A stretch of 64,000 nt of DNA from Dehalococcoidia bacterium (GTDB lineage: Bacteria > Chloroflexota > Dehalococcoidia > SM23-28-2 > HRBIN24). Below, in pieces: positions 9,196 through 42,272 of this stretch. Both the position numbers and the translations under genes were made by a program. A model generated the notes under the pieces. That model searched no databases. It saw only the letters and a program-made list of their open reading frames with translations, and had not been told where the DNA came from. Every line of letters starts with the position of its first letter. Within the stretch, counting starts at the first letter, position 1. The stretch covers positions 1,936 to 65,935 of the forward strand of contig DAOTWZ010000042.1 in assembly GCA_034435615.1 (NCBI GenBank). The letters are read 5' to 3'.

Positions 9196-9696
9196 GTGGC
9201 TTCTCCCGAGCGCACCGCGGCCGCCTTCGCCAGGCTCTACGAGGAGTGCTACGGCCGGGTCTTCCACTACATCTACTCTCAGGTGCGGGACTTCGAGCTA
9301 GCCCGCGACCTGACGGCTGACGTCTTCGTCCGGGCCTTCGCCCGTTTCCACACGCTGCGCCAGTGGGACTCCCGCCTCCCCTGGCTGCTGGTAATCGCCC
9401 ATAACCTGCTGGCGGCCCACTACCGCCGCCGTCAGCGGGAGCAGGCCTTCGCTCGCTCTCTGCAGGGGTATGGAGAGGCCGAGGTCCAGGAGACGCCGGT
9501 GGCGGAAGACCTCGTCCTGCTGGAGAGCGAGATGGGGCTCCTGAGCCGCCGGGAGCGACAGGCCCTCTCCCTCCGCTTCGACGGCGGACTGACGACGGCC
9601 GAGATCGCCCGCCTCCTGGGAGTGCGAGAGGTAACGGTGCGGGTGCTCCTCTACCGCGCTCTGAAGAAGCTCCGCCGCGCCCTGGAGGGGAGCTAG
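9196..9696 (+). CDS. ECF sigma-70 factor
   Basis: FARLYEECYGRVFHY, DLTADVFVRAF, WLLVIAHN (region 2); RQALSLRF...TAEIARLLG...TVRVLLYRALKKL (region 4). Confidence 0.85.
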   Translation: MASPERTAAAFARLYEECYGRVFHYIYSQVRDFELARDLTADVFVRAFARFHTLRQWDSRLPWLLVIAHNLLAAHYRRRQREQAFARSLQGYGEAEVQETPVAEDLVLLESEMGLLSRRERQALSLRFDGGLTTAEIARLLGVREVTVRVLLYRALKKLRRALEGS

Positions 9697-10595
9697 GCGG
9701 AGGCGGGCTGGAAGCGGTAGATCTCGCCCAGCACCTCCAGGAAGGCGAGGACGGGCCGCGGCCGGCGCCGGTTGCGCCGGTATATGAGGGCGATGGTGCG
9801 GCTGAGGGGGGCGGCGTCCACTATGGGCACCTCCACCAGCACCCCCAGCTCCAGCTCCCGCTCGATGGTGACGCGGGGCACCATGGCGATGCCCAGCCCC
9901 TCCTCCACCATGCGCTTGGTGGCCTCCAGGGAGTCCAGCTCCATGGCCACGTGGGGGACCAACCCCGCCTGGCGGAAGTAGGAGTGAATGAGGCCGAAGT
10001 AGCTGGAGCCGCGGTCGAACAGGATGAGGGGCTGGGTAGCCACCTCCTCCAGACGGGCCTCCCCTCTCTGGGCGAAGGAGTGGTCACGGGGCACCGCCAA
10101 GACTATCTCGTCCTCGTAGAGGGGGACTGTCTCCACCTCCGGGTGCTGGAGGGAGCGCACCAGGCCGGCCTGGACCTCGTCGCTCAGGACCATGCCCAGG
10201 ACCTGCTCAGAGCGGCCGGTGCGCACGGAGACGTTGATCCCGGGGAAGCGGCGGCGGAAGGCGTGCAGGATCTTGGGGAGGACGTAGGTGCTTATGGTGA
10301 GGGCAGAGCCCAGCCGCAGATGGCCCAGCCCCAGGCTGCGCACCTCCTCCACGGCGTCCCGCCCTTCCTTCACCACCTGAAGGATCTTCAGGGCGTGAGG
10401 CAGGAAGGCCTCGCCGGCGTCCGTCAAGCGAACGCCGCGGCCGCCCCGCTCGAAGAGCTCCTCGCCCAGCTCCCGCTCCAGGGACTGGATGCGGGCCGTC
10501 ACGGAGGGCTGGGTGAGCTGCAGGGCCTGGGCGGCACGGCTGAAGCTGAGCTGCTGGGCTACCTGCACGAAGGCCTCGATCTGACTCAGGTCCAT
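9693..10595 (-). CDS. LysR family transcriptional regulator
   Basis: MDLSQIEAFVQVAQQLSFSRAAQALQLTQPSVTARIQSLERELG HTH plus substrate-binding domain. Confidence 0.95.
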   Translation of the reverse strand: MDLSQIEAFVQVAQQLSFSRAAQALQLTQPSVTARIQSLERELGEELFERGGRGVRLTDAGEAFLPHALKILQVVKEGRDAVEEVRSLGLGHLRLGSALTISTYVLPKILHAFRRRFPGINVSVRTGRSEQVLGMVLSDEVQAGLVRSLQHPEVETVPLYEDEIVLAVPRDHSFAQRGEARLEEVATQPLILFDRGSSYFGLIHSYFRQAGLVPHVAMELDSLEATKRMVEEGLGIAMVPRVTIERELELGVLVEVPIVDAAPLSRTIALIYRRNRRRPRPVLAFLEVLGEIYRFQPASA

Positions 10596-32355: not shown

Positions 32356-32428
32356 CTGGTGGGCCCGGGAGGATTCGAACCTCCAACCAACCGGTTATGA
32401 GCCGGCCGCTCTGCCGTTGAGCTACGGG
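32356..32428 (-). repeat. att copy: duplicated tRNA-Ile2 lacking its first 3 nt
   Basis: Identical to 39810-39882; the 5' end reads TCC instead of GGG, breaking the acceptor stem. Confidence 0.93.
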
Positions 32429-32499
32429 GGAACCCTGTCCACCTTGCCCTTCCCAATCCGGAACTCGCCCCTTCCCACCCCATAACGGGAGGTGTCAAG

Positions 32500-33390
32500 T
32501 TGGCCAGGGATGCCAACCGAGCGTCCGGTTGCCCGGCCCTCCTCAGGGGCTTCGCCCTCCACCTGGAGGCCCAGCGCCTCAGCCCCCGAACCCGCCAGCA
32601 CTACCTCCAGAGCGCCCGCCGCCTGCTGGCCTGGCTGGGGGAGGACCGTCACCCTGGGCGGCTCCGGCCAGGGGAGATGGCCGCCTTCCTCCAGGAAGCC
32701 TACCCCCAGAGGAGCGCCAAGACCCTCAGGGAGCACCTGCTGGCCCTCCGCCGCTTCTACCGCTGGCTCCAGGCCGAGGGCGAGGCCAGGAGCGACCCCA
32801 CCAGCTCCCTGAAGCTGCCCACCTTCCGGACGCCCCCCATGCCCGCCTACACCCCCGCCGAGGTGAAGCGCCTGCTGCTGGCCTGTGACCGTAGGAGCCG
32901 CCAGGGCCTCAGGGACTACGCCGCCCTCCTGGTCCTCTACGACACCGGCCTCCGGGCGGGCGAGCTGGTCTCCATGACCTGTGAGGGGCTGGACTGGGAG
33001 CGGGGAGCGGCCCAGGTGAGGGGGAAGACGGGAGCCAGAGAGGTGCCCCTGGGGGCGGTTGCCCTCCAGGCCCTGGAGCGCTACCTGAGGCGCTGGGGCA
33101 TCGAGTCTGGCCCCGTCTGGCGGGGGGAGCGAGGCCCCCTCAGCGAGAGCGGCCTCCTGCAAATGGTGAGGCGGCTCTCGGCGAGGGCGGGCGTCCCCCA
33201 CAAGGGGGTCCATGCCTTCCGTAGGGCGGCGGCCATCGAGATGAAGCGGGCGGGGATGAACGACTCCGACATCCTCCAGGTGCTGGGCTGGAAGTCCATC
33301 GCCATGCTCCGACGCTACACCCAGCAGGAGGCCCAGGCGCTGGCCTTCCAGGCCCACCGCCGCTTCTCCCCCGCCGACCGCCTGGGCTAG
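32500..33390 (+). CDS. Tyrosine recombinase/integrase
   Basis: LYDTGLRAGEL (R), GKTG (K), HAFRR (HxxR), VLGW, MLRRY (Y); SD GGGAGGTG, TTG start. Confidence 0.93.
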   Translation: MARDANRASGCPALLRGFALHLEAQRLSPRTRQHYLQSARRLLAWLGEDRHPGRLRPGEMAAFLQEAYPQRSAKTLREHLLALRRFYRWLQAEGEARSDPTSSLKLPTFRTPPMPAYTPAEVKRLLLACDRRSRQGLRDYAALLVLYDTGLRAGELVSMTCEGLDWERGAAQVRGKTGAREVPLGAVALQALERYLRRWGIESGPVWRGERGPLSESGLLQMVRRLSARAGVPHKGVHAFRRAAAIEMKRAGMNDSDILQVLGWKSIAMLRRYTQQEAQALAFQAHRRFSPADRLG

Positions 33391-33418
33391 AGGCCCCGTC
33401 CTGGCCAGCCCCCTGCTG

Positions 33419-33547
33419 GGAGACCGATGGGGACTCCGGAGACCGATGGGCCGTTCTTTCGGCCAATTCCCCCTGGACCTGGTGGGTCGCCGGGCAATTC
33501 CCCCTACAGTTCGGTCCATCGGTCTCCAGGGCTCCGAACGGTCTCCC
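33419..33547. repeat. Cluster of short direct and inverted repeats
   Basis: GGAGACCGATGGG at 33419 and 33438, inverted CCATCGGTCTCC at 33516, CAATTCCCCCT at 33464 and 33495. Confidence 0.75.
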
Positions 33548-33661
33548 TGGGGCAGGGTCTGGGGGCAAAGAATGTGATTCTCTGCCCTGGTCTCCCGAAG
33601 GATGAGGCTTCCCCCTGAGGGCTGGAGTGGGCTACCATCGGGGCCGTAGGGGGTAAGGGAG

Positions 33662-33760
33662 ATGCCCATCGCCTTCCTCGCCCTCGTCTCCCTCGTCGGC
33701 CTGGCCTTCCTGGGCCTGGTCCTCCTGGCCTGGGACAGTTGGAGGCGCTGGCTGAAGTGA
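33662..33760 (+). CDS. 32-aa single-TM peptide MPIAFLALVSLVGLAFLGLVLLAWDSWRRWLK
   Basis: Translated by hand, below the ORF-track cutoff; purine-rich SD (GGTAAGGGAG) directly upstream. Confidence 0.6.
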   Translation: MPIAFLALVSLVGLAFLGLVLLAWDSWRRWLK

Positions 33761-33830
33761 GGGGGACAGCCCAGAGGGAAGCCCTCTCCCCTTCGGGCTG
33801 CCCCCCAGCGCCTAGGCCCACTGCCGGCCC

Positions 33831-34001
33831 TCACCTCCCCAACACCCGCCGGGCCAAGGCCGTCGTCCGGAAGTCCAGCTCCTCCCTCAGCTCCTCGACC
33901 TCCTTCTGGAGCCGCTCCACCTCCTCCTCCAGGGAGGCGACCCGCTCTTGCAGCTCGGTCACCATGTCGGCAAGCTCTCGAAGGCCCCGCTCGATGCTCA
34001 T
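33831..34001 (-). CDS. 56-aa coiled-coil protein MSIERGLRELADMVTELQERVASLEEEVERLQKEVEELREELDFRTTALARRVLGR
   Basis: Translated by hand; AAGGAGG SD; clear heptad pattern. Confidence 0.7.
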   Translation of the reverse strand: MSIERGLRELADMVTELQERVASLEEEVERLQKEVEELREELDFRTTALARRVLGR

Positions 34002-34130
34002 CTCCTTCGCCTCCTTCCCTGGCTCGATGGTCTGGCCCGATGGTCTGGGCTGAGAGAGGGGAGCGAGGGCCAGAGGGTCAGAGGGTGCCCCACCTGGCTC
34101 CTGCCCCCCTCTCAGCCTCGTGGGCTCGGC

Positions 34131-34406
34131 CTAGGTGGCCGAGGCGGGCTCGCCCCGTAGGACCTCGTCGAAGAGGCTCCTGGCCCGCTGCCGCTCCTTC
34201 TCGGAGAGCAGGGGCCAGAAGGCGGCCACTAAGTGCCACGCCTGGATGGGGGTGGGCACTTCCGCCCTGTGGAAGCACTCGCTGGCGTAGCGGTAGCAGT
34301 GGCCACACTCCAGGGTGCAGCCCGCCTCGATGGCTGCCTCACCGCTCTCCAGGACGACGACCTCGAACCCGCCGGGTAGCGAGACCCGTAGCGCTACGTG
34401 GCTCAT
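34131..34406 (-). CDS. Element hypothetical protein with Cys/His cluster
   Basis: SD AAGGAGG; C-x3-CGHC...C-x-H. Confidence 0.7.
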   Translation of the reverse strand: MSHVALRVSLPGGFEVVVLESGEAAIEAGCTLECGHCYRYASECFHRAEVPTPIQAWHLVAAFWPLLSEKERQRARSLFDEVLRGEPASAT

Positions 34407-34547
34407 GGCTCGACCTCCTTTCGCTGTTGGGCTTCACCGGTCCAGGGGCGACGGCAGAGCCGTCGCCCGTCTGGCCTTCTCGGCAGGCAGGTGGGGGCAG
34501 AGGCGGCGGTGGGGCCTGGCCGCCGCCCCGCCCCCGTAGGGCATTGG

Positions 34548-34886
34548 CTAGGACCTGGTCTTGAGGACCTCGGCCAGAAGGCCGATGAACTCCGCCAGGG
34601 CCTGAGGGTCGAAGCTGACCACCAGGTGGACGGTGACGGCCCGCTCGCCCTCGCCCTCGGCCTGGGCGGGCTCGCTCCCGTTCACGCTGGCCACGGGGCG
34701 GGCTGCCTTCACCTTGGGGAACCTGCCCGACGTGTCGATGTCCAGCTCCCACAGGCCAGGCACGAGGGCCCGCCCCACCTTCGGGTCGAAGGCGTAGATG
34801 GGCTTCTCCTCGCCCTCGACGTGGACGACCCAGAAGGGGGCCTTCTGACCCGCCTTCTCCTCGACCTTGACAACCGTCGCCAGCAT
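34548..34886 (-). CDS. Element protein, putative OB-fold ssDNA-binding protein
   Basis: SD AAGGAGGT; alternating beta strands with exposed aromatics, then an acidic linker; fold assignment is inference. Confidence 0.55.
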   Translation of the reverse strand: MLATVVKVEEKAGQKAPFWVVHVEGEEKPIYAFDPKVGRALVPGLWELDIDTSGRFPKVKAARPVASVNGSEPAQAEGEGERAVTVHLVVSFDPQALAEFIGLLAEVLKTRS

Positions 34887-34959
34887 GCTCTAACCTCCTT
34901 CTCGCTCCTGGACTTCTGCCCTGGCCGATGGCCCCATACCCGGCCAGGGCCAATGAGAT

Positions 34960-34986
34960 GGGGGGTGCTCCCTGGGAGCACCCCCC
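34960..34986. repeat. Perfect 12-bp hairpin
   Basis: GGGGGGTGCTCC-CTG-GGAGCACCCCCC, no U-tract. Confidence 0.85.
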
Positions 34987-35005
34987 AAAGCCTTGAGATA
35001 AGACC

Positions 35006-35344
35006 CTAGCCTAGCTGGGTGATGCCCTTGCACCGCCGACACAGCCAGCCGTGCCGCCCGTCGGGGTAGGCCCAGTAGGCCACCTCAGTGGGCGCCTGGC
35101 ACAGGCACCACCGCCCCGTCAGGAAGATGCTGTTGGCGAACCCCAAGGCCAGGGTGAAGGCGTCGGTGTCGCCCGCCAGGGGTGTCGGCTCTCCGTGACG
35201 GGCCACCACCGCCAGGGCCAGCGGCAGTAGCTCCCTCGCCCGCCTCACCACCTGCTCCCGCTCGGCCAGGTGCTGCATCAGCCAGCACCGCTGCCCACAG
35301 GCCGAGAGGTCGGGGCACCACTCACATCCCGGGCCGTCGCCCAT
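35006..35344 (-). CDS. Element Cys-rich protein
   Basis: ATG 35344 after GGGAGG; CEWC-x5-C-x3-C and CLC...CRRC. Confidence 0.65.
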   Translation of the reverse strand: MGDGPGCEWCPDLSACGQRCWLMQHLAEREQVVRRARELLPLALAVVARHGEPTPLAGDTDAFTLALGFANSIFLTGRWCLCQAPTEVAYWAYPDGRHGWLCRRCKGITQLG

Positions 35345-35587
35345 GCTGCATCGCCTCCCTTCAGCTAGACTTCGAGAACCAGAGGGCGAGCGCCCGGGCG
35401 CTCGCCCTGATGCCGATGGAGACCTCTCAAGCCTTGGGGACGATGAGGGTAAGGGCGTGGCCAGGAGGGGTGAACCACGACGGGGGCCTGGAGGGCACAT
35501 TTGGGAACTCTCGACACCCTGAACTGGGAAATGTGACTCCTGCTCCTAAAAGACCTCCTATCCTCGTTCGCCGTCCCGTCATGGGCT

Positions 35588-35857
35588 ATGCTGAAGACGA
35601 TGATGCAATGGCGAAGGGCCGAGAGGCCCCGCCCTGCCGCCTTGTGGCAGACGGAAGCCCTCCGTCGTCTGGCCAGGCGATGGGAGCGAGAGCGGCCCTG
35701 GAGACCCTGCCCCTGCCCCCTTTGCTCGCCTCCGCCACCGCCCCCGCCGCCGTCCAGGTGCCCTCGCTGTGGCGGCGGCATCTACCAGGAGCGAATAGAC
35801 GGCGGCGTGGACCTCTACTGCATCGCCTGTGGCTGGCGACTGGCCCTATGGAGCTAG
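35588..35857 (+). CDS. Element zinc-ribbon protein with a polyproline tract
   Basis: CPCPLC-S-P8-RCPRCGG...CIACG; possible leaderless start at ATG 35600 after TATGCT. Confidence 0.6.
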   Translation: MLKTMMQWRRAERPRPAALWQTEALRRLARRWERERPWRPCPCPLCSPPPPPPPPSRCPRCGGGIYQERIDGGVDLYCIACGWRLALWS

Positions 35858-35931
35858 GCCACAGCCATGATGTAGTCCTGCTCCCCCAGACCCCAGTAAC
35901 CAGGTGGGCAAAGAATCACGAATCCGTATTT

Positions 35932-36417
35932 TCAAGAATTATGGACTGGTATTCTTTGGATGGCCTCGGCTAGAGTCGTCGCCCTGGTCCGGCACGCCCA
36001 CCTGACATCGGAGCCTTTGACGCCTCCGCCCCCTGTCCTCTGGACCAGCCTCTCCCGCTCAAGCCTCTGGAGGGCAGCTCGTAGCTGGTGGGCAGGGACA
36101 TCTATGCCCGCCAGTCGCTTCAGCCACTGGCGTAGGCCCCGGATGGTGGTGGGCTTGCCCCCCAGTCGCCTCAGCCCCGCCAGCAGCAGCAAGTCCAAGG
36201 CTGGCAAGGCGAGGATGGAGGGTCCCCTGGCCAGCACTTCGGCGATGCTCTCGGCTATGAAGCTGCCCCTGGACGAGCGGCGGAGGTGGAGCAGCCTTCG
36301 GCACTCAGAGCAGGCGGTGACGACTACCGCCTCGATGCCGACGCCAGGGAGCCCACAGCACGGGCAGAGGGCGGGCAGGACCTCCTCGTGGTCGTCACTC
36401 CTCTGGCAGTCCATCAT
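35932..36417 (-). CDS. Element zinc-ribbon plus winged-HTH protein
   Basis: CPCC...CSEC then PTTIRGLRQWL...LRAALQRLERERLVQR...RW; ATGA overlap with the upstream gene. Confidence 0.65.
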   Translation of the reverse strand: MMDCQRSDDHEEVLPALCPCCGLPGVGIEAVVVTACSECRRLLHLRRSSRGSFIAESIAEVLARGPSILALPALDLLLLAGLRRLGGKPTTIRGLRQWLKRLAGIDVPAHQLRAALQRLERERLVQRTGGGGVKGSDVRWACRTRATTLAEAIQRIPVHNS

Positions 36418-36914
36418 GGCTTCTCCTCCTGGGGCAGGAAGGGCTTCAGCTCAGGCAGCCGGTGGACCAGCTCCTCCTTCGGCACCCGTAGCGTGAGGGC
36501 ACCGTCCCGCTCCTCGGCCAGCAAGTAGACGAGGGCCTCGCCCATGTCCAGGAGGCTGCCCGTCACGGGGACGCCCCATCTCTCCGCCGCCTCCTGGCAG
36601 AGTTCTCGGGCCAGCCCCTGGACCGCTCGCCAGGTCCATCGCCTGCCATCCCACCCGACCAGCACAGCCAGGACCATGCAGGCGTGGCGGGTCGCCTCGG
36701 CGAGGTGGCGTAGCTCCAGGAGGAAGCTCTCGAACTCGCCCTTGGAGCGCCTGGCCTGGGCAGCCAGAGTCCGAAGCCTCGCCTCTACCCAGCGGGCGGG
36801 AGACTCCTCGGCCTCCTCCTCCTCGCCATAGAGACCGGGACAGCCCTCGGCTACGGCGGTCAGGAGCCCCCGCCCTGCCGCCTCTAGGCTACGGACCAGG
36901 GCGAGGGCAGCCAC
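36414..36914 (-). CDS. Element helical protein, possibly the C-terminal part of Rep
   Basis: GTG start without SD; the frame is open a further 108 codons upstream, to 37238. Confidence 0.6.
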   Translation of the reverse strand: MAALALVRSLEAAGRGLLTAVAEGCPGLYGEEEEAEESPARWVEARLRTLAAQARRSKGEFESFLLELRHLAEATRHACMVLAVLVGWDGRRWTWRAVQGLARELCQEAAERWGVPVTGSLLDMGEALVYLLAEERDGALTLRVPKEELVHRLPELKPFLPQEEKP

Positions 36915-37099
36915 CAGCAGGCGAGAGGAGAGGTCACACCGGGCGGGATAGGACTCGGGCGCCCCATCCCCTACCTCCCCCAGCGCCGCCTCCAGTCGCC
37001 CCAGGGGTCCAGCCAGGGCGGGGCGGGTATATCCTCTCTCCGTAGTCCTCGACTCTCCGCCCAGAGGGGCAGAGGACGGTGCTCCCCCTTGGTCGGGGT

Positions 37100-37155
37100 G
37101 CAGGGGCTCCGCCCCTGCAGTCGTCGGGGGGTCAGAGGGGGGCAGAGCCCCCCTC
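37100..37155. repeat. Tandem GC-rich triloop hairpins
   Basis: GCAGGGGC-TCC-GCCCCTGC (37100-18) and GAGGGGGGC-AGA-GCCCCCCTC (37135-55). Confidence 0.8.
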
Positions 37156-37197
37156 GGCTCAGGATGAGATGTCGGTGCTGCCGGGTGCTCTGGAACA

Positions 37198-37719
37198 TCA
37201 TCTCTGGATAGGACATCTGGATATGGGTGAACTCTGCTTCACCGGGGTGGTGAACTCTGCTTCACCGGGGTGGTGAACTGGAGTGCACCGGGGTGGTGAA
37301 GTGTGCTTCACCGGTGAACTCTGCTTCACCCCCTGGTAGACCTCGGTCCTGATGCCTCGCTGGGGCGTCTGGCGGTCGGGGCTCCGGTAGGTGGCGAGGT
37401 AGCCCAGCTCGGCGAGCCGTCGGAGGCTGTCCTTGGCCTGGCGGGGGGAGATGCCTGCCGCCCGGGCGAGGGTGGTGCTGGAGGCGAAGGTGGTCCTGGA
37501 GCGGCGGTCGGAGTAGGCGAGGATGAGGCCCAAGAGGCGGAGGTCCGAGAGGCGAAGCCGTCCGTCCAGGAGGGCGGCCACAGGGAAGCGGACCCACTTC
37601 CGTCCCGGTGCCCTGGGCTGCCTCCTGCCGCCCTTCTCTTGGCTCCCGGCCTCGGCGATGGGCCGGGTCTGGGCCAGCTCCTCTTTCGGTCGGCTTCCGT
37701 TTGTGTTAACCTTCTGCAT
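37198..37719 (-). CDS. Putative replication initiator (N-terminal winged HTH) with internal iterons
   Basis: LRLSDLRLLGLILAY...TFASSTTLARAAGISPRQAKDSLRRLAELGYL; SD AAAGGAGG; repeats in the 3' part of the gene. Confidence 0.8.
   Translation of the reverse strand: MQKVNTNGSRPKEELAQTRPIAEAGSQEKGGRRQPRAPGRKWVRFPVAALLDGRLRLSDLRLLGLILAYSDRRSRTTFASSTTLARAAGISPRQAKDSLRRLAELGYLATYRSPDRQTPQRGIRTEVYQGVKQSSPVKHTSPPRCTPVHHPGEAEFTTPVKQSSPISRCPIQR
37226..37330. repeat. Five palindromic 18-bp iterons GGTGAA-N6-TTCACC (putative origin)
   Basis: Units at 37226, 37249, 37272, 37295 (23-bp period) and 37313. Confidence 0.88.
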
Positions 37720-37795
37720 AGGGCAATCGCCTCCTTTCCGTGTGGTGTGGTGCCGTCCAGGGGAGGGCTAGAGCCAGCCCTCCCCTGGGGCTTCC

Positions 37796-38221
37796 TCAGC
37801 CAATCCGGACCACTCGCTCGGGCGGCACCCATGCCCACGGCCAGCCTGGGGCATCGGGCTGCCTGTCGAAGTCCCGGAGCCTGAACCACGCCTCAGGCTG
37901 CCCGTCGAAGGTGCCTGGGACGCCCACCTCTCGGGCCCTGGAAAGGGCCAGGCTGTAGTGCTCGACGAGGCCAGGCACCACCTGGACGCCCACCTCCAGC
38001 CGGCGGGCACCAGCCCGCTGGGCTATGTCGAGGGCCTCGGCCGGGATGCTGAAGGCGTCGCCCTTGAGCCTCGGTCTGCCGCCAAGGGCGTAGGCCAGCA
38101 CAACGGCTTCGTCCTCCAGGGAGAAGGTCACCTTGGCCACGACCACCTCCCTGCCTCCCAGGAAGGAGCGGCGGACAGTGATGACGAAGGGCGGCTTGGG
38201 GATGGACCTGGCGGTGGTCAT
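37796..38221 (-). CDS. Element hypothetical protein
   Basis: 141 aa; ATGA overlap with the upstream ORF. Confidence 0.7.
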   Translation of the reverse strand: MTTARSIPKPPFVITVRRSFLGGREVVVAKVTFSLEDEAVVLAYALGGRPRLKGDAFSIPAEALDIAQRAGARRLEVGVQVVPGLVEHYSLALSRAREVGVPGTFDGQPEAWFRLRDFDRQPDAPGWPWAWVPPERVVRIG

Positions 38222-38430
38222 GCCCTGGTCACCCCCTCATCGGCGTCGGCCTGGGCCTGGCGGCGGGACATCATCCGCCAGGTCCTTAGGGAGGTCTCCA
38301 GGGCGGCCAAGCTGGGGGCTATGAAGGCCTGGAAGGCCAGAAGCTCCTGGAGGTCGGCGGCACCCCTGAACCTCTCCCTCTGGCTGTAGGTGCCCCGGGC
38401 GGTATCGAGCTTGATGGTGATGGTCGCCAT
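38218..38430 (-). CDS. Element hypothetical protein
   Basis: 70 aa from ATG 38430 after GAGGAGGTG. Confidence 0.65.
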   Translation of the reverse strand: MATITIKLDTARGTYSQRERFRGAADLQELLAFQAFIAPSLAALETSLRTWRMMSRRQAQADADEGVTRA

Positions 38431-38543
38431 TGGCTGCTGCACCTCCTCGATGGGTCTCCATCAGGAGAAGGGGTAGCAGCGAGGCGATTCTATTCAGCCT
38501 GGCAGCCAGGGGTTAGGGGGCAGGGGGGCGAGCCTCGCTCTAC

Positions 38544-39533
38544 CTAGCGGCTTAGACGCTGCCGTAGGAGCCTCAAGGCTTCCTGGAGGCGGCGGGAGAC
38601 GGTGGGCTGGGAGAGTCGGAGGCGGCGGGCGACCTCCTGCTGGGAGAGCCCCTCCACGAGCGCCAGCCTGACGATGGCCCTCATCTCTTCGCTCAGAGTG
38701 GCCAGGGCCTCCTGAAGGTCCACCTTCAGCAGCACGACGTCCTCCTCCTGGACCGCCAGGGCGGGGGCCGAGGGCTGGGGATGCCCTTCTTCCTGGCCCT
38801 CCTCATGCAGGGGGGCTATCTGCCTCTTGGAGCGGGCGCTGTGGATGCCCCTGCCTAGCTCTTGTCTGAGCAGGCCCCTCACTCGCTCCAGGACGTGGGC
38901 TTCCGGCCCCAGGGCGGGCAGGGGCTGCCCCTCGACGACCAGGAAGCGGCGGGGGATGCCGGACCGGTCACGTCTAGCCTCAAGCTGGCTCAGGCCCCAG
39001 GCAGACTGGACGAGGGCGGTGGCGTCTTCGCCTCGCCTGACCAGTTGCTCCAGGAGAGGCCCAGTCCGGGGATGGCGATGGATGGCCTGCCGTAGGTCCT
39101 GGCCGGCGATGTGGTCCCAGCCTGCTTCGGCGGCCAGGGCTCGCTCCATCGTCCAGAAGATGAGGGCAGGCAGTCGAAGGGCCAGGGCGGTGCCGTTGCC
39201 CAGGGGGGCTATCGCCAGCCGCTCGGCCAGGTCCACATAGCAGGCGATGAAGGGAGGCGGGGCCTCGATGTCCCCAGCCTGCACCTGGCCCAGGGCTACT
39301 TGCCGTTGCAGCCCCAGGGCGTCCACCTCGCCTTCGCCCTTCAGCAGGACCCTCACCTGGTCATCGAACCTTGGCTCCAGGTCGCCCTCCTGGTGGACCA
39401 GAAGGGCGTAGGCCCAGCACCCCATCACCTGGCGGTGGAGGGCTTCCGCCTCGGCCCGTAGGGCAGGGGGGTAGTAGGCGGGGTTGCCCCGGCTCTCCTC
39501 GACGAAGGCGACGATGTTCTGCCACACGTCCAC
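38544..39533 (-). CDS. Element protein with a C-terminal sigma-70 region-4 HTH
   Basis: LQEALATLSEEMRAIVRLALVEGLSQQEVARRLRLSQPTVSRRLQEALRLLR; GTG 39533 after GGAGGG. Confidence 0.75.
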   Translation of the reverse strand: MDVWQNIVAFVEESRGNPAYYPPALRAEAEALHRQVMGCWAYALLVHQEGDLEPRFDDQVRVLLKGEGEVDALGLQRQVALGQVQAGDIEAPPPFIACYVDLAERLAIAPLGNGTALALRLPALIFWTMERALAAEAGWDHIAGQDLRQAIHRHPRTGPLLEQLVRRGEDATALVQSAWGLSQLEARRDRSGIPRRFLVVEGQPLPALGPEAHVLERVRGLLRQELGRGIHSARSKRQIAPLHEEGQEEGHPQPSAPALAVQEEDVVLLKVDLQEALATLSEEMRAIVRLALVEGLSQQEVARRLRLSQPTVSRRLQEALRLLRQRLSR

Positions 39534-39810
39534 GCTGGCCCCTCCGTGGGCGGGAGGGCTGGGGCTGCCACACCGGGAGGCCAGAGATGCCGGCGGGGCG
39601 CCCCGGTCCCTCTCGCCCACCAGGGTAGCCCATCCCCTGGGCCTGGAGCAAGTGGCGGCTTCGAACGTATGTTGCCTGGACGGGGGCACGAGGGGCCTGG
39701 CATCATGGGGGCTGTCCTGGGGCGAGGGACTGAGCGGCATTGTGGGCAGGGGGCCTGACTGAGCGCCCGGCTTGCCGGTGCTGGGGCAGGAAGCCGCTCT
39801 CGGTCTGCTC

Positions 39811-39885
39811 TGGTGGGCCCGGGAGGATTCGAACCTCCAACCAACCGGTTATGAGCCGGCCGCTCTGCCGTTGAGCTACGGGCCC
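39811..39885 (-). tRNA. tRNA-Ile2 (CAT anticodon, lysidine type), intact copy
   Basis: GGGCCCG/CGGGCCC acceptor stem with C4 and C5, loop CTCATAA, A73, CCA; paired G1-C72 excludes initiator tRNA; elongator Met is not formally excluded. Confidence 0.85.
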
Positions 39886-40503: not shown

Positions 40504-41313
40504 CTAGCTGCCCTGGGCCGAGGGGTAGCGGGGCTGACGCTTCTCCTGGAGGGCGCGCAGCCCCTCTCGCACGTCCACATCGAAGAAGCCCAGCATCTCC
40601 AGGGCCAGCGACAGGTCGAAGGAGACGAGGCCGCCCAGACGCAGCCACTGGTTGAGGGCCCGCTTCGTCCAGCGGATGGCCCGCTGGGGCCCGTTGGCCA
40701 GCCGCCGCGCCACCTCCATGGCCCGGTCCATCAGCTCCTCATGGGGCACCACCATGCTCACCAGCCCTATCCGCTCCGCCTCCCGGGCGTCCAGCATCTC
40801 CCCTGTGAGCAGGTAGTACTTGGCCTTGGCCATGCCACAGAGGAGGGGCCAGATCATGCAGGCGTGGTCGCCAGCGGCTACGCCCAGGCGCACATGACCG
40901 TCGCCGAAGCGGGCCCGCTCCGAGGCGATGGTGATGTCGGCCACCAGGGCGGCCGCCAGCCCCGCCCCCACGGCCACCCCGTTGATGGCGGAGACGATGG
41001 GCTTGCTGCAGTTCACCATGTTGTAGACCAGGTCGTGGGCCTCCTTCATGACGGTGCGGAGGATCAGCTCCGGGTCCTGCAACTGGGACTCGATGAGGGT
41101 GAAGTCGCCGCCAGCGGAGAAGGCCTGCCCGGCGCCCGTTATCAGGGCCACTCGCACCTCGTCGTCCTGGTCGATGTCCAGCCAGATGCGGGTCAGCTCG
41201 TTGTGGAGGCGGGCGTCGGTGGCGTTGAACTTCTCGGGCCGGTTCAGGGTGATGAGGGCGATGCCGTCCCTCTTCTCGATGATCATGTCGTGGTAAGAGC
41301 TGTAGTCTACCAT
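40504..41313 (-). CDS. Crotonase-family protein, paralog 1
   Basis: [42 protein letters not shown]. Confidence 0.9.
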
Positions 41314-41441
41314 CTCTTGCCCCCTTCGGACGTGAATTGCGGGTCTGGACTTCTCAGGCAACACCGAGTGCGGGCCAGGGCGGGTGGCCCCACGGGCGGG
41401 GCGGTCAGGGGCTCTCTGGCTGGCGGGCCCTCGGTCAACTC

Positions 41442-42272
41442 TCACCCTTTGCGCTCTGGCCCGCTGCCGCCCAGGGAGGGCCACCGTGGCTCCCGGCGCT
41501 CGCGTATGGCGCGGTAGCCCTCCTGGGCATCGGCGTCCAGGAAGCCCAGCATCTCCAGGGCCACGGAAAGGTCGAAGGAGACGAGGCCGCCCAGGCGCAG
41601 CCACTGGTTGAGGGCCCGCTTCGTCCAGCGGATGGCCCGCTGGGGCCCGCTGGCCAGCCGCCGCGCCACCTCCATGGCCCGGTCCATCAGCTCCTCATGG
41701 GGCACCACCATGGTGATGAGGCCAATGCGCTCCGCCTCCCGGGCGTCGATCCAGTCGGCGGTGAGAAGGTAGTATTTGGCCTTGGCCATGCCGCAGAGGA
41801 GGGGCCAGATCATGCAGGCGTGGTCGCCGGCGGCCACTCCCAGACGCATGTGTCCGTCGCTCAGGCGGGCCCGCTCCGAGGCGATGCTGATGTCGGAGAC
41901 CAGGGCGGCGGCGAGGCCGGCACCCATGGCCAGACCGTTGATGGCGGAGATGACGGGCTTGTCGCAGTTGACGATGTTGTAGACCAGGTCGCGGGCCTCT
42001 GGCAGGAGGAAGCTGCAGACGGCCTCCGGGTTGCCCAGGCTCTCCTCCAGGAGGCTGTAATCACCGCCGATGGAGAAGGAGTCGCCGGCGCCGGTGAGGA
42101 CGGCCACCCGCACCTCGTCGTCTCGGGCGATGTCCAGCCAGACGCGGCTCAGCTCGTTGTGCATGCGGCTGGTGGTGGCGTTGAAGCGGTCGGGGCGGTT
42201 CATGGTGATGAGGGCGATGCCCTCTCGCTTCTCGATGACCAAGTCCTGGTAGGAGCCGTAGTCCACAGCCAC
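41442..42272 (-). CDS. Crotonase-family protein, paralog 2
   Basis: [41 protein letters not shown]. Confidence 0.9.

Follow-up and report, generated by a model that had tools for sequence, protein, structure and literature searches.

A tRNA(CAU)-integrated 7.45-kb element with a lambda O-like replication module in a Dehalococcoidia bacterium

Which kind of genetic element occupies a compact, tRNA-bounded segment in the genome of a Dehalococcoidia bacterium (GenBank assembly GCA_034435615.1)? The window, by which we mean the complete stretch of 64,000 nucleotides analyzed here (contig DAOTWZ010000042.1, positions 1,936 to 65,935 of the forward strand), carries this segment at positions 32356-39882, and all coordinates given below refer to the window. 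In a preliminary description, the segment had been considered an excisable and autonomously replicating element of a possibly undescribed type, which depends on a helper for its spread. Our analysis leads us, with moderate confidence, to regard it as a small integrative, plasmid-like "cryptic" replicon that relies on other elements for spreading.

The element is bounded by two 73-bp direct repeats (32356-32428 and 39810-39882), which are 100% identical and 7454 bp apart according to a repeat search, so that the terminal repeats at a tRNA and the size of 7.45 kb described before were found where they had been placed. The right repeat (attR) lies within an intact tRNA(CAU) gene on the minus strand (repeat and gene together 39810-39885). 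This gene (39811-39885, anticodon CAT) is 75 nt long and was recognized by both ARAGORN and Rfam (73 bits). The left repeat (attL, 32356-32428, minus strand) comprises tRNA nucleotides 4-75 together with a single flanking base, and the 5' GGG is missing from it. Here, ARAGORN did not call a tRNA and the Rfam tRNA match (54.5 bits) was confined to positions 4-67. Since the acceptor stem has lost its first three bases and the Rfam match is restricted in this way, the left copy is displaced and non-functional. The element supplied a copy of tRNA nucleotides 4-75, which now completes the functional gene.

As target of the insertion, tRNA-Ile2 had been suggested. The acceptor stem of the tRNA(CAU) involves the pairs G1-C72, G3:C70, C4:G69, and C5:G68, and because of the G1-C72 pair it is not an initiator tRNA. 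TilS separates tRNA-Ile2 from tRNA-Met by the pairs 3:70 and 4:69 in Burkholderia cenocepacia, and in E. coli the acceptor-stem pairs 4:69 and 5:68 tell the two apart (PMC11947777). Ile2 identity is plausible since the pairs of our tRNA(CAU) sit at acceptor positions used by TilS (PMC11947777). Thus, the insertion into a non-initiator tRNA(CAU) gene stands, and judging from these pairs, the target is probably tRNA-Ile2.

When the RarA protein encoded in the flank of the window was used for comparison, the best matches (72-73% identity) and several others (66-67%) came from metagenome-assembled genomes (MAGs) of Dehalococcoidia and Chloroflexia, which agrees with the proposed Chloroflexota host. 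The species-representative collection contained no closer host relative (top RarA identity 73%). In two of these distant relatives (L004 and L021), the tRNA directly adjoins the orthologous Nudix gene and the site is free of the element. Their tRNA is 92-96% identical to the homologous tRNA of the window and is followed by ordinary genes (GGDEF sensor or trehalose phosphatase). At the position adjoining the Nudix gene, the window carries the truncated tRNA copy, whereas L004 and L021 carry the homologous tRNA. The flanks of the element are ordinary chromosomal genes, with cupin and Nudix genes on one side and DUF488 and enoyl-CoA hydratase genes on the other. The unoccupied site of the relatives and the ordinary flanks therefore indicate that 7.45 kb were inserted into the tRNA gene.

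Next to the left repeat, we found an intact tyrosine integrase gene (32500-33390, plus strand, 296 aa), as had been reported. The protein is XerC/D-like, carries SAM-like N-terminal domains and matches PF00589 with 3.9e-28, and the catalytic R...K...HxxR...W...Y motifs are legible in its translation. It also matched the phrog_1 integrase family (1.4e-41), and among solved structures, where XerD and XerA were matched, XerD (1a0p, 9e-15) was closest. Its score of 119 bits is far below the XerD equivalog cut-off of 330 (NCBIfam). Neither the species-representative genomes nor IMG/VR yielded a relative when searched with this integrase. With the catalytic motifs, the tRNA-borne repeats and an unoccupied site in distant relatives, the segment has the properties of a tRNA-targeting tyrosine-recombinase element.

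The putative replication module involves a gene that we call Rep173 (37198-37719, minus strand, 173 aa). It encodes an HTH_36 or lambda O-like N-terminal origin-binding protein (PF13730, 7e-8), and its remote PHROG matches are replication initiation and O-like families (phrog_8102, 270, and 391; 7.5e-6 to 6e-4). The last 45 codons of the gene are iterons, which comprise five 18-bp palindromes of the type GGTGAA-N6-TTCACC with a 23-bp period (37226-37332). Four of them match within 3 mismatches, and 0 were expected from shuffled sequence. Thus, the winged-helix initiator with iterons that had been described was recovered. The origin-like region (37197-37332) includes in addition a GC-poor patch with two copies of TATCCAGA (37202-37223), and the GC content beside the iterons is 0.45 over 40 bp compared with a background of about 0.70. 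TATCCAGA is loosely DnaA-box-like and occurs three times in the window (0.36 expected), which we consider weak evidence. Two perfect 9-bp GC hairpins (I18 and I19; 37099-37155) are located downstream of the Rep173 gene, and a perfect 13-bp hairpin (I6; 37757-37788) separates it from the preceding gene g141.

In ori-lambda, palindromic iterons are located inside gene O, where they are bound by dimers of the N-terminal domain of the O protein. An AT-rich stretch and a palindrome follow, and the C-terminal part of O recruits the helicase loader. Using two GGTGAA-N6-TTCACC palindromes at the spacing of the window as IMG/VR query, we obtained at least 50 phage contigs (L086-L135) spanning GC contents of 0.46-0.67. 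For all 50 contigs retrieved, the array falls inside an open reading frame (ORF), mostly in its middle (about aa 80-190 of 220-470), and several of these ORFs are cut by contig ends. Ten of ten sampled ORFs matched the PHROG annotations "replication initiation O-like" or "replication initiation protein" (1e-11 to 1e-63). Residues 43-168 of Rep173 align to the N-terminal halves of phage O-like proteins (28-32%, 1e-6, blastp). Since this iteron type is present in at least 50 phage contigs and the sampled ORFs are O-like, the Rep173 replicon is a known phage-type module, and from their sequences both the origin and its predicted origin-binding protein are recognizable and well conserved. The shared iteron type points to a very widely conserved mode of DNA recognition in the O-like initiator family. 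A word-based search for Rep173 homologues returned only the protein of the window itself, and none was found in IMG/VR. As a separate observation, translation of the iterons in the phage O-like genes gives a repeated peptide in the central part of the protein.

At the right end of the element, next to the intact tRNA gene, starts a leftward operon on the minus strand, in which g329, g74, g141, and Rep173 are followed by genes for proteins of 166, 161, 112, 112, 91, and 56 aa. The first gene of this leading module, g329 (38544-39533, minus strand), starts with a GTG at 39533 (gene call P0008) and codes for 329 aa. Thus, the 398-aa ORF is too long. The sigma-70 region 4 helix-turn-helix (HTH) motif noted before was confirmed (2e-10, Pfam). 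It occupies the C-terminal 60 residues and follows a novel N-terminal domain. Sigma region 2 was not matched in Pfam, NCBIfam, or Foldseek searches, and the idea that g329 might be a full sigma factor was rejected for this reason. Because region 2 is absent, g329 is a candidate DNA-binding regulator and not a sigma factor. An AlphaFold2 model based on a five-sequence alignment (predicted local distance difference test, pLDDT, 59.7) had a beta-rich N-terminal part, and Foldseek comparison with PDB and BFVD viral models recognized region 4 alone. Elsewhere in the window, a host sigma factor of the extracytoplasmic function type (9196-9693, plus strand) has both region 2 and region 4.

The second gene of the module, g74 (38218-38442, minus strand, 74 aa), is homologous to genes of 62-76 aa that follow the g329 homologues elsewhere (tblastn 4e-5, alignment A2). 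An exhaustive HMMER search of 1.84 billion representatives yielded four full-length g329 homologues with 33-46% identity and a fragment, and a metagenome scan contributed a further locus, which gave five loci in all (L081-L085). A word-based search returned only the window's own g329 protein, and IMG/VR yielded no relatives. The five loci are short contigs with GC contents of 0.67-0.71, and the leading pair of the window is 30-46% identical to theirs. In every one of them, the g329 homologue is followed by the homologous 62-76-aa gene. Four of the five continue after the leading pair with a large Prim-Pol/PriCT_1 protein that includes a D5_N or AAA_25 helicase part; this protein was matched in L081, L083, and L084, and L085 resembles L083 over the shared genes. 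The contig of L082 ends before this position. One locus contains in addition an HTH_17 Xis/AlpA-like gene and one a PD-(D/E)XK nuclease gene. Such Prim-Pol/helicase replicases are typical of satellites and cryptic integrated elements. The window element has no Prim-Pol/helicase after its leading module, and g141 and Rep173 with its iterons occupy the replicase position instead.

A tRNA-like sequence was detected 210-230 bp upstream of the g329 homologue in three of the five loci. These sequences scored 41-42 bits compared with 72 for a real tRNA and their 5' halves are degenerate, so that they are displaced att copies. The leading module adjoins the intact tRNA in the window, whereas it adjoins a displaced copy in the relatives. 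Thus, the feature that defines the g329-led family at the element edge (g329 and a homologous gene of 60-76 aa) is present here and the Prim-Pol/helicase is not. The search for syntenic elements, which had been recommended in the preliminary description, was therefore successful for the two leading genes but for no other gene, and the window element belongs to a rare tRNA-integrating family through this module only.

Two side observations concern the relatives. In L082, a fluoride riboswitch upstream of crcB (9629-9773) lies immediately against the att copy next to the g329 homologue; this copy is degenerate and tRNA-Val-like. Moreover, L082 (9810-9850) and L083 (3480-3520) share the motif GCCGAGGGGGA..GTCGGCAAA..GTCGGCA, which is followed by a -10-like TACAAT or TATACT. 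This motif is flanked by the g329 homologue and the att copy and was not found in the window; it is probably an operator or promoter of the L082/L083 sub-family.

To which described class the element might belong depends on functions that it does and does not encode. Scans with Pfam, PHROG, NCBIfam, and PADLOC gave no family match to a relaxase, a type IV secretion system or coupling protein, an FtsK-like Tra protein, a capsid, or a terminase. In none of the reading frames did we find a Walker A/P-loop motif, except for a chance match inside the integrase. These data support the earlier statement that recognizable virion, packaging, and transfer genes are missing. The family searches were also empty for the hallmarks of ICE (integrative and conjugative elements), IME (integrative and mobilizable elements), and actinomycete ICE, but an oriT may be present. 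Hallmarks of phage-inducible chromosomal islands (PICI), which involve a primase/helicase replicase and terS, ppi, cpm, or similar genes, had no match in Pfam, PHROG, or NCBIfam. The phage-inducible chromosomal minimalist islands (PICMI) share with the element the integrase only, since it has no AlpA and no DUF3987/DUF5906 primase and is flanked by Nudix and DUF488 genes and not by fis. The pI/Zot-like ATPase of inoviruses and IME1-like elements was found neither by the P-loop search nor with PHROG.

Most of the remaining genes are short. For nine ORFs of 56-166 aa, neither Pfam, PHROG, NCBIfam, nor PADLOC gave a family, and four element proteins carry CxxC pairs when their translations are read, which corresponds to the about ten short ORFans, several of them Cys-rich, that had been counted before. 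Directly 3' of the origin, g166 (36414-36914, minus strand, 166 aa) encodes a helical ORFan without a family. Structure comparison, suggested previously for every ORF, was carried out for g329 (see above) and g166, and it gave nothing meaningful for the latter, whose single-sequence AlphaFold2 model was helical and of low confidence (pLDDT 57.5). The ORFan g141 (37796-38221, minus strand, 141 aa), whose start overlaps the g74 stop, also lacks a family and forms a singleton cluster. The 161-aa protein (35932-36417, minus strand) has N-terminal CxxC pairs, a GntR winged-helix match below the cut-off (4.5e-4), and is likewise a singleton. Further downstream in the operon, there is a Cys-rich ORFan of 112 aa (35006-35344, minus strand) with CxxC pairs at both ends and an ATG start preceded by GGGAGG, a second 112-aa ORFan (34548-34886, minus strand; no family, singleton, GC content at third codon positions, GC3, 0.95), and a Cys-containing ORFan of 91 aa (34131-34406, minus strand; no family, GC3 0.90, singleton 90% cluster). 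The last gene encodes a coiled-coil protein of 56 aa (33831-34001, minus strand), for which only generic coiled-coil matches were obtained. On the plus strand, an ORF of 89 aa (35588-35857) resembles a zinc ribbon with its C-terminal CxxC...CxxC; it has no family, is absent from the protein collection, and its coding status is uncertain.

All seven recorded element proteins are singletons at the 90% cluster level among about 15 billion proteins. Seven ORFans were covered by this look-up, by the family libraries, and by tblastn against phages and plasmids. Neither the whole element (blastn) nor Rep173 and the nine concatenated ORFans (tblastn) had a match among sequenced plasmids and phages. 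PADLOC detected no defence genes in the element, and consensus scans for promoters and terminators yielded no site there. The GC3 of the element ORFs is host-like (0.80-0.95). The perfect GC hairpins of the preliminary description were present at the five sites listed (34959-34987, 35383-35408, 37099-37119, 37135-37155, and 37757-37788) and at others, and they occur in most intergenic gaps.

Between the integrase gene and the end of the operon, additional features were observed. Just 3' of the integrase gene, an imperfect inverted repeat of 45 nt (I1; cluster at 33419-33527, repeat search) contains three exact copies of GGAGACCGATGG, of which two are direct with a distance of 19 bp and the third is inverted. 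Elsewhere in the 64 kb there is one copy with 1 mismatch, and the cluster is probably a protein-binding site. A Logan contig (L137, run SRR9001935) lacks 31 bp of the window (33465-33495) between two CAATTCCCCCT copies, a small indel polymorphism inside the element, and apart from this a single base is different in about 2.4 kb. In the same run, a 2.6-kb stretch agrees with the element at 100% identity. A hydrophobic peptide ORF of 32 aa (MPIAFLALVSLVGLAFLGLVLLAWDSWRRWLK; 33662-33760, plus strand; Kyte-Doolittle maximum 2.79, GC3 0.97) was independently called as a gene on L137. The peptide is strongly hydrophobic with a basic C-terminus, and its ORF follows about 270 bp of structured non-coding DNA and is convergent with the main operon. 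This ORF might serve maintenance in the manner of a type I toxin gene, or it could encode a membrane protein that belongs to the element. In the right flank, two tandem enoyl-CoA hydratase-like genes (40504-41604 and 41442-42272) have a stretch of 300 nt in common, whose copies (repeat D1) are 84% identical and lie 956 bp from each other. This pair is a local gene duplication that is unrelated to the element.

From these data, the following course of events may be proposed. The XerC/D-like integrase would have recombined attP, which carried a copy of 72 of the 75 nt of the tRNA(CAU), with the host tRNA gene, and this recombination would have rebuilt the intact tRNA at the right end and left the 5'-truncated copy at the left. 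Rep173 dimers may bind the five palindromic iterons in the 3' end of their own gene. After excision, the O-type module would fire the origin with host factors, since Rep173 lacks the C-terminal half that binds the helicase loader. The leading pair g329 and g74 probably sets the transcription of the single long leftward operon and would be a probable switch. On the excised circle, the integrase gene and the g329 operon would point away from each other on either side of attP, and integration would part them. We infer that this separation follows a common way of coupling integrase expression to the integration state. Since it lacks transfer and virion genes of its own, the element should be inherited vertically and should move from cell to cell only with outside help, which might come from a phage, a vesicle, or a conjugative helper.

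Several observations weigh against this reading. The element-free sites stem from distant relatives (72-73% RarA identity). Logan contigs end inside the 73-bp repeat and also in the iterons, so that no attP or attB junction was seen in them, and a look-up of the DUF488 flank gene gave no match. Rep173 ends 8 codons past the last iteron, whereas complete phage proteins run 100-200 residues further. A remnant of the O C-terminal domain was not found in the element by tblastn with 47 phage O-like proteins, and no P/DnaC/DnaB-like partner gene was detected anywhere in it. We considered g166 or the DNA 3' of the iterons as the missing domain and rejected both candidates, as no similarity was found. 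The N-terminal winged helix and the in-gene iterons of a lambda O module are thus present, but its C-terminal domain and partner gene are not. Therefore, the replicon stands as an initiator/iteron module but its autonomous replication is not assured, and the Rep173 module may fail to sustain replication. Moreover, the searches may have overlooked a structural or packaging gene among the ORFans. The coding density of the element is only 75%.

The truncated initiator leads directly to a different explanation, in which the element is a decaying, defective, or domesticated remnant with a dead replication module that persists in the chromosome, maybe with the help of a maintenance gene such as the hydrophobic peptide. 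The absence of the Prim-Pol/helicase that is usual in the family, the low coding density with many hairpin-filled gaps, and the fully host-like codon usage would be compatible with this idea. However, no difference has arisen between the 73-bp repeats, neither the integrase nor any other ORF is broken, frameshifted remnants are absent, the five iterons are well conserved, and two assemblies differ over 4.9 kb compared by the 31-bp indel, which makes decay improbable. Even less probable is an assembly artefact, in which a free circular plasmid with a tRNA-like attP was threaded into the chromosome through the 73-bp repeat. The source is a draft or MAG contig of 76 kb, the short-k Logan contigs break in the repeat and in the iterons, and 73 bp are at the resolution limit of short reads. 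The left copy, however, is truncated exactly as a recombination product would be, and the sequence of the element would be identical in either case, so that only the statement that it is integrated now would have to be changed.

The other explanations concern the way of spreading. A minimal, PICMI-like phage satellite would remain in the chromosome up to the infection by, or the induction of, a helper phage and would then excise, replicate from its O-type origin, and be packaged into helper capsids, possibly as a concatemer. The size and the gene content are close to PICMI (PMC10803314), which have 6.1 kb with int, alpA, a primase, and three unknowns. Moreover, the replication module is phage-type, the relatives resemble satellites in carrying a Prim-Pol/helicase and, in one locus, an HTH_17 Xis/AlpA-like gene, and the leading HTH module could sense a helper. 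Against this stand the family scans, which gave no AlpA, primase, terS, capsid, or interference gene, and the sampled flanks without prophage or phage genes. Neither the element nor its relatives were found in IMG/VR or among sequenced phages, and no helper is known. The support for a satellite goes no further than the size and the phage-type origin, and we consider it unlikely, albeit the least unlikely of these alternatives. A very small new temperate virus, either membrane-enveloped or pleomorphic, might have its virion proteins among the ORFans together with the 32-aa membrane peptide. There is a precedent in IME1-type Chloroflexota elements, which were once filed as IME and have now been put forward as budding or filamentous viruses (bioRxiv 10.64898/2026.09.15.751708), and the element encodes one small transmembrane peptide and several Zn-ribbon proteins. 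This scenario is nevertheless very hard to sustain: neither a pI/Zot-like nor another ATPase was found, there is a single candidate membrane protein, PHROG gave no structural matches, and the ORFs, which our size argument puts at no more than 166 aa apart from the integrase and g329, are small. Moreover, IME1 elements are 21-28 kb long and have 14 conserved groups, of which none was recognized here. It is also rather doubtful that high-GC Chloroflexota host a so far undescribed lineage of minimal elements that depend on a helper, either as satellites or as vesicle-borne replicons, and to which our element and its five relatives would belong. In this lineage, the leading pair would sense a helper and the replication module would be freely exchangeable. 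Such a lineage would swap a Prim-Pol/helicase for a stripped-down O-type initiator that works without its C-terminal domain.

Thus, an integrative cryptic replicon remains our preferred reading, but the type as such is not new. The iteron type of the lambda O-type module is present in at least 50 phage contigs and cryptic tRNA-integrating replicons are an already known class, which speaks against the possibly undescribed type that had been proposed. PICI, PICMI, and P4-type satellites are further described tRNA-targeting or integrative elements with a replication module and otherwise unique genes. New are the sequences and the phylum, the combination of a non-phage integrative backbone and an O-type origin, and the small family defined by g329 and g74, and since the class of cryptic or hitcher integrative replicons is established, current concepts are unchanged. 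[quoted passage not shown] It indicates that lambda-type origin-in-gene modules with the GGTGAA-N6-TTCACC iterons of many phages are also employed by small integrative elements that are not phages and belong to a distant phylum. Moreover, it sets the bounds of a rare leading module of two genes that is combined with different replicases. If the truncated initiator were active, the O N-terminal domain and iterons could suffice for origin firing with host factors.

When the element is compared with known systems, IME1 of Dehalococcoidia is similar as an integrated or episomal Chloroflexota element without tailed-phage hallmarks. IME1 is, however, 21-28 kb long and encodes a pI-like ATPase and many small membrane proteins (bioRxiv 10.64898/2026.09.15.751708), whereas the window element has 7.45 kb, no ATPase, and one candidate membrane peptide. 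PICMI are 6.1-kb satellites of Vibrionaceae without capsid genes, which carry int, AlpA, and a DUF3987/DUF5906 primase next to fis (PMC10803314), so that minimal satellites lacking capsid genes had been described before. Like the window element, they combine within 6-7 kb an integrase, a regulator, a replication gene, and few unknowns without capsid-remodelling genes. Helper dependence has been shown for PICMI (PMC10803314) and is putative for our element.

The lambda O/ori-lambda modules (PHROG 391, 270, 678, 8540, and 1032) share with the element an N-terminal winged-helix initiator, 18-bp palindromic iterons with about 23-bp phasing inside the initiator gene, and a GC-poor patch and palindrome beside the iterons, and the GGTGAA/TTCACC half-sites and their spacing are exactly common to at least 50 phage contigs. 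Differences are the length of the initiator (173 aa compared with 220-470 aa), the missing C-terminal domain and the missing P/DnaC/DnaB-type gene after it, and the 7.45-kb non-phage element that hosts the module. With the L081-L085 family, the element has in common the leading pair, a GC content of 67-71%, and an edge beside tRNA-derived att copies. Tycheposons and "cryptic elements" of marine bacteria are tRNA-targeting integrative replicons with mostly unique genes (bioRxiv 10.1101/2020.12.28.424599), and cryptic integrated elements are also known in Thaumarchaeota (PMC6563490). The window element differs from tycheposons and cryptic elements in its phylum, in the lack of recognizable cargo, and in its O-type initiator, in whose place they use a primase, a helicase, or a polymerase. 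Otherwise it corresponds to them in that a tyrosine recombinase acts at a tRNA gene, a partial tRNA copy is found at the far end, and a replication module is accompanied by mostly unique genes and by no virion or conjugation genes.

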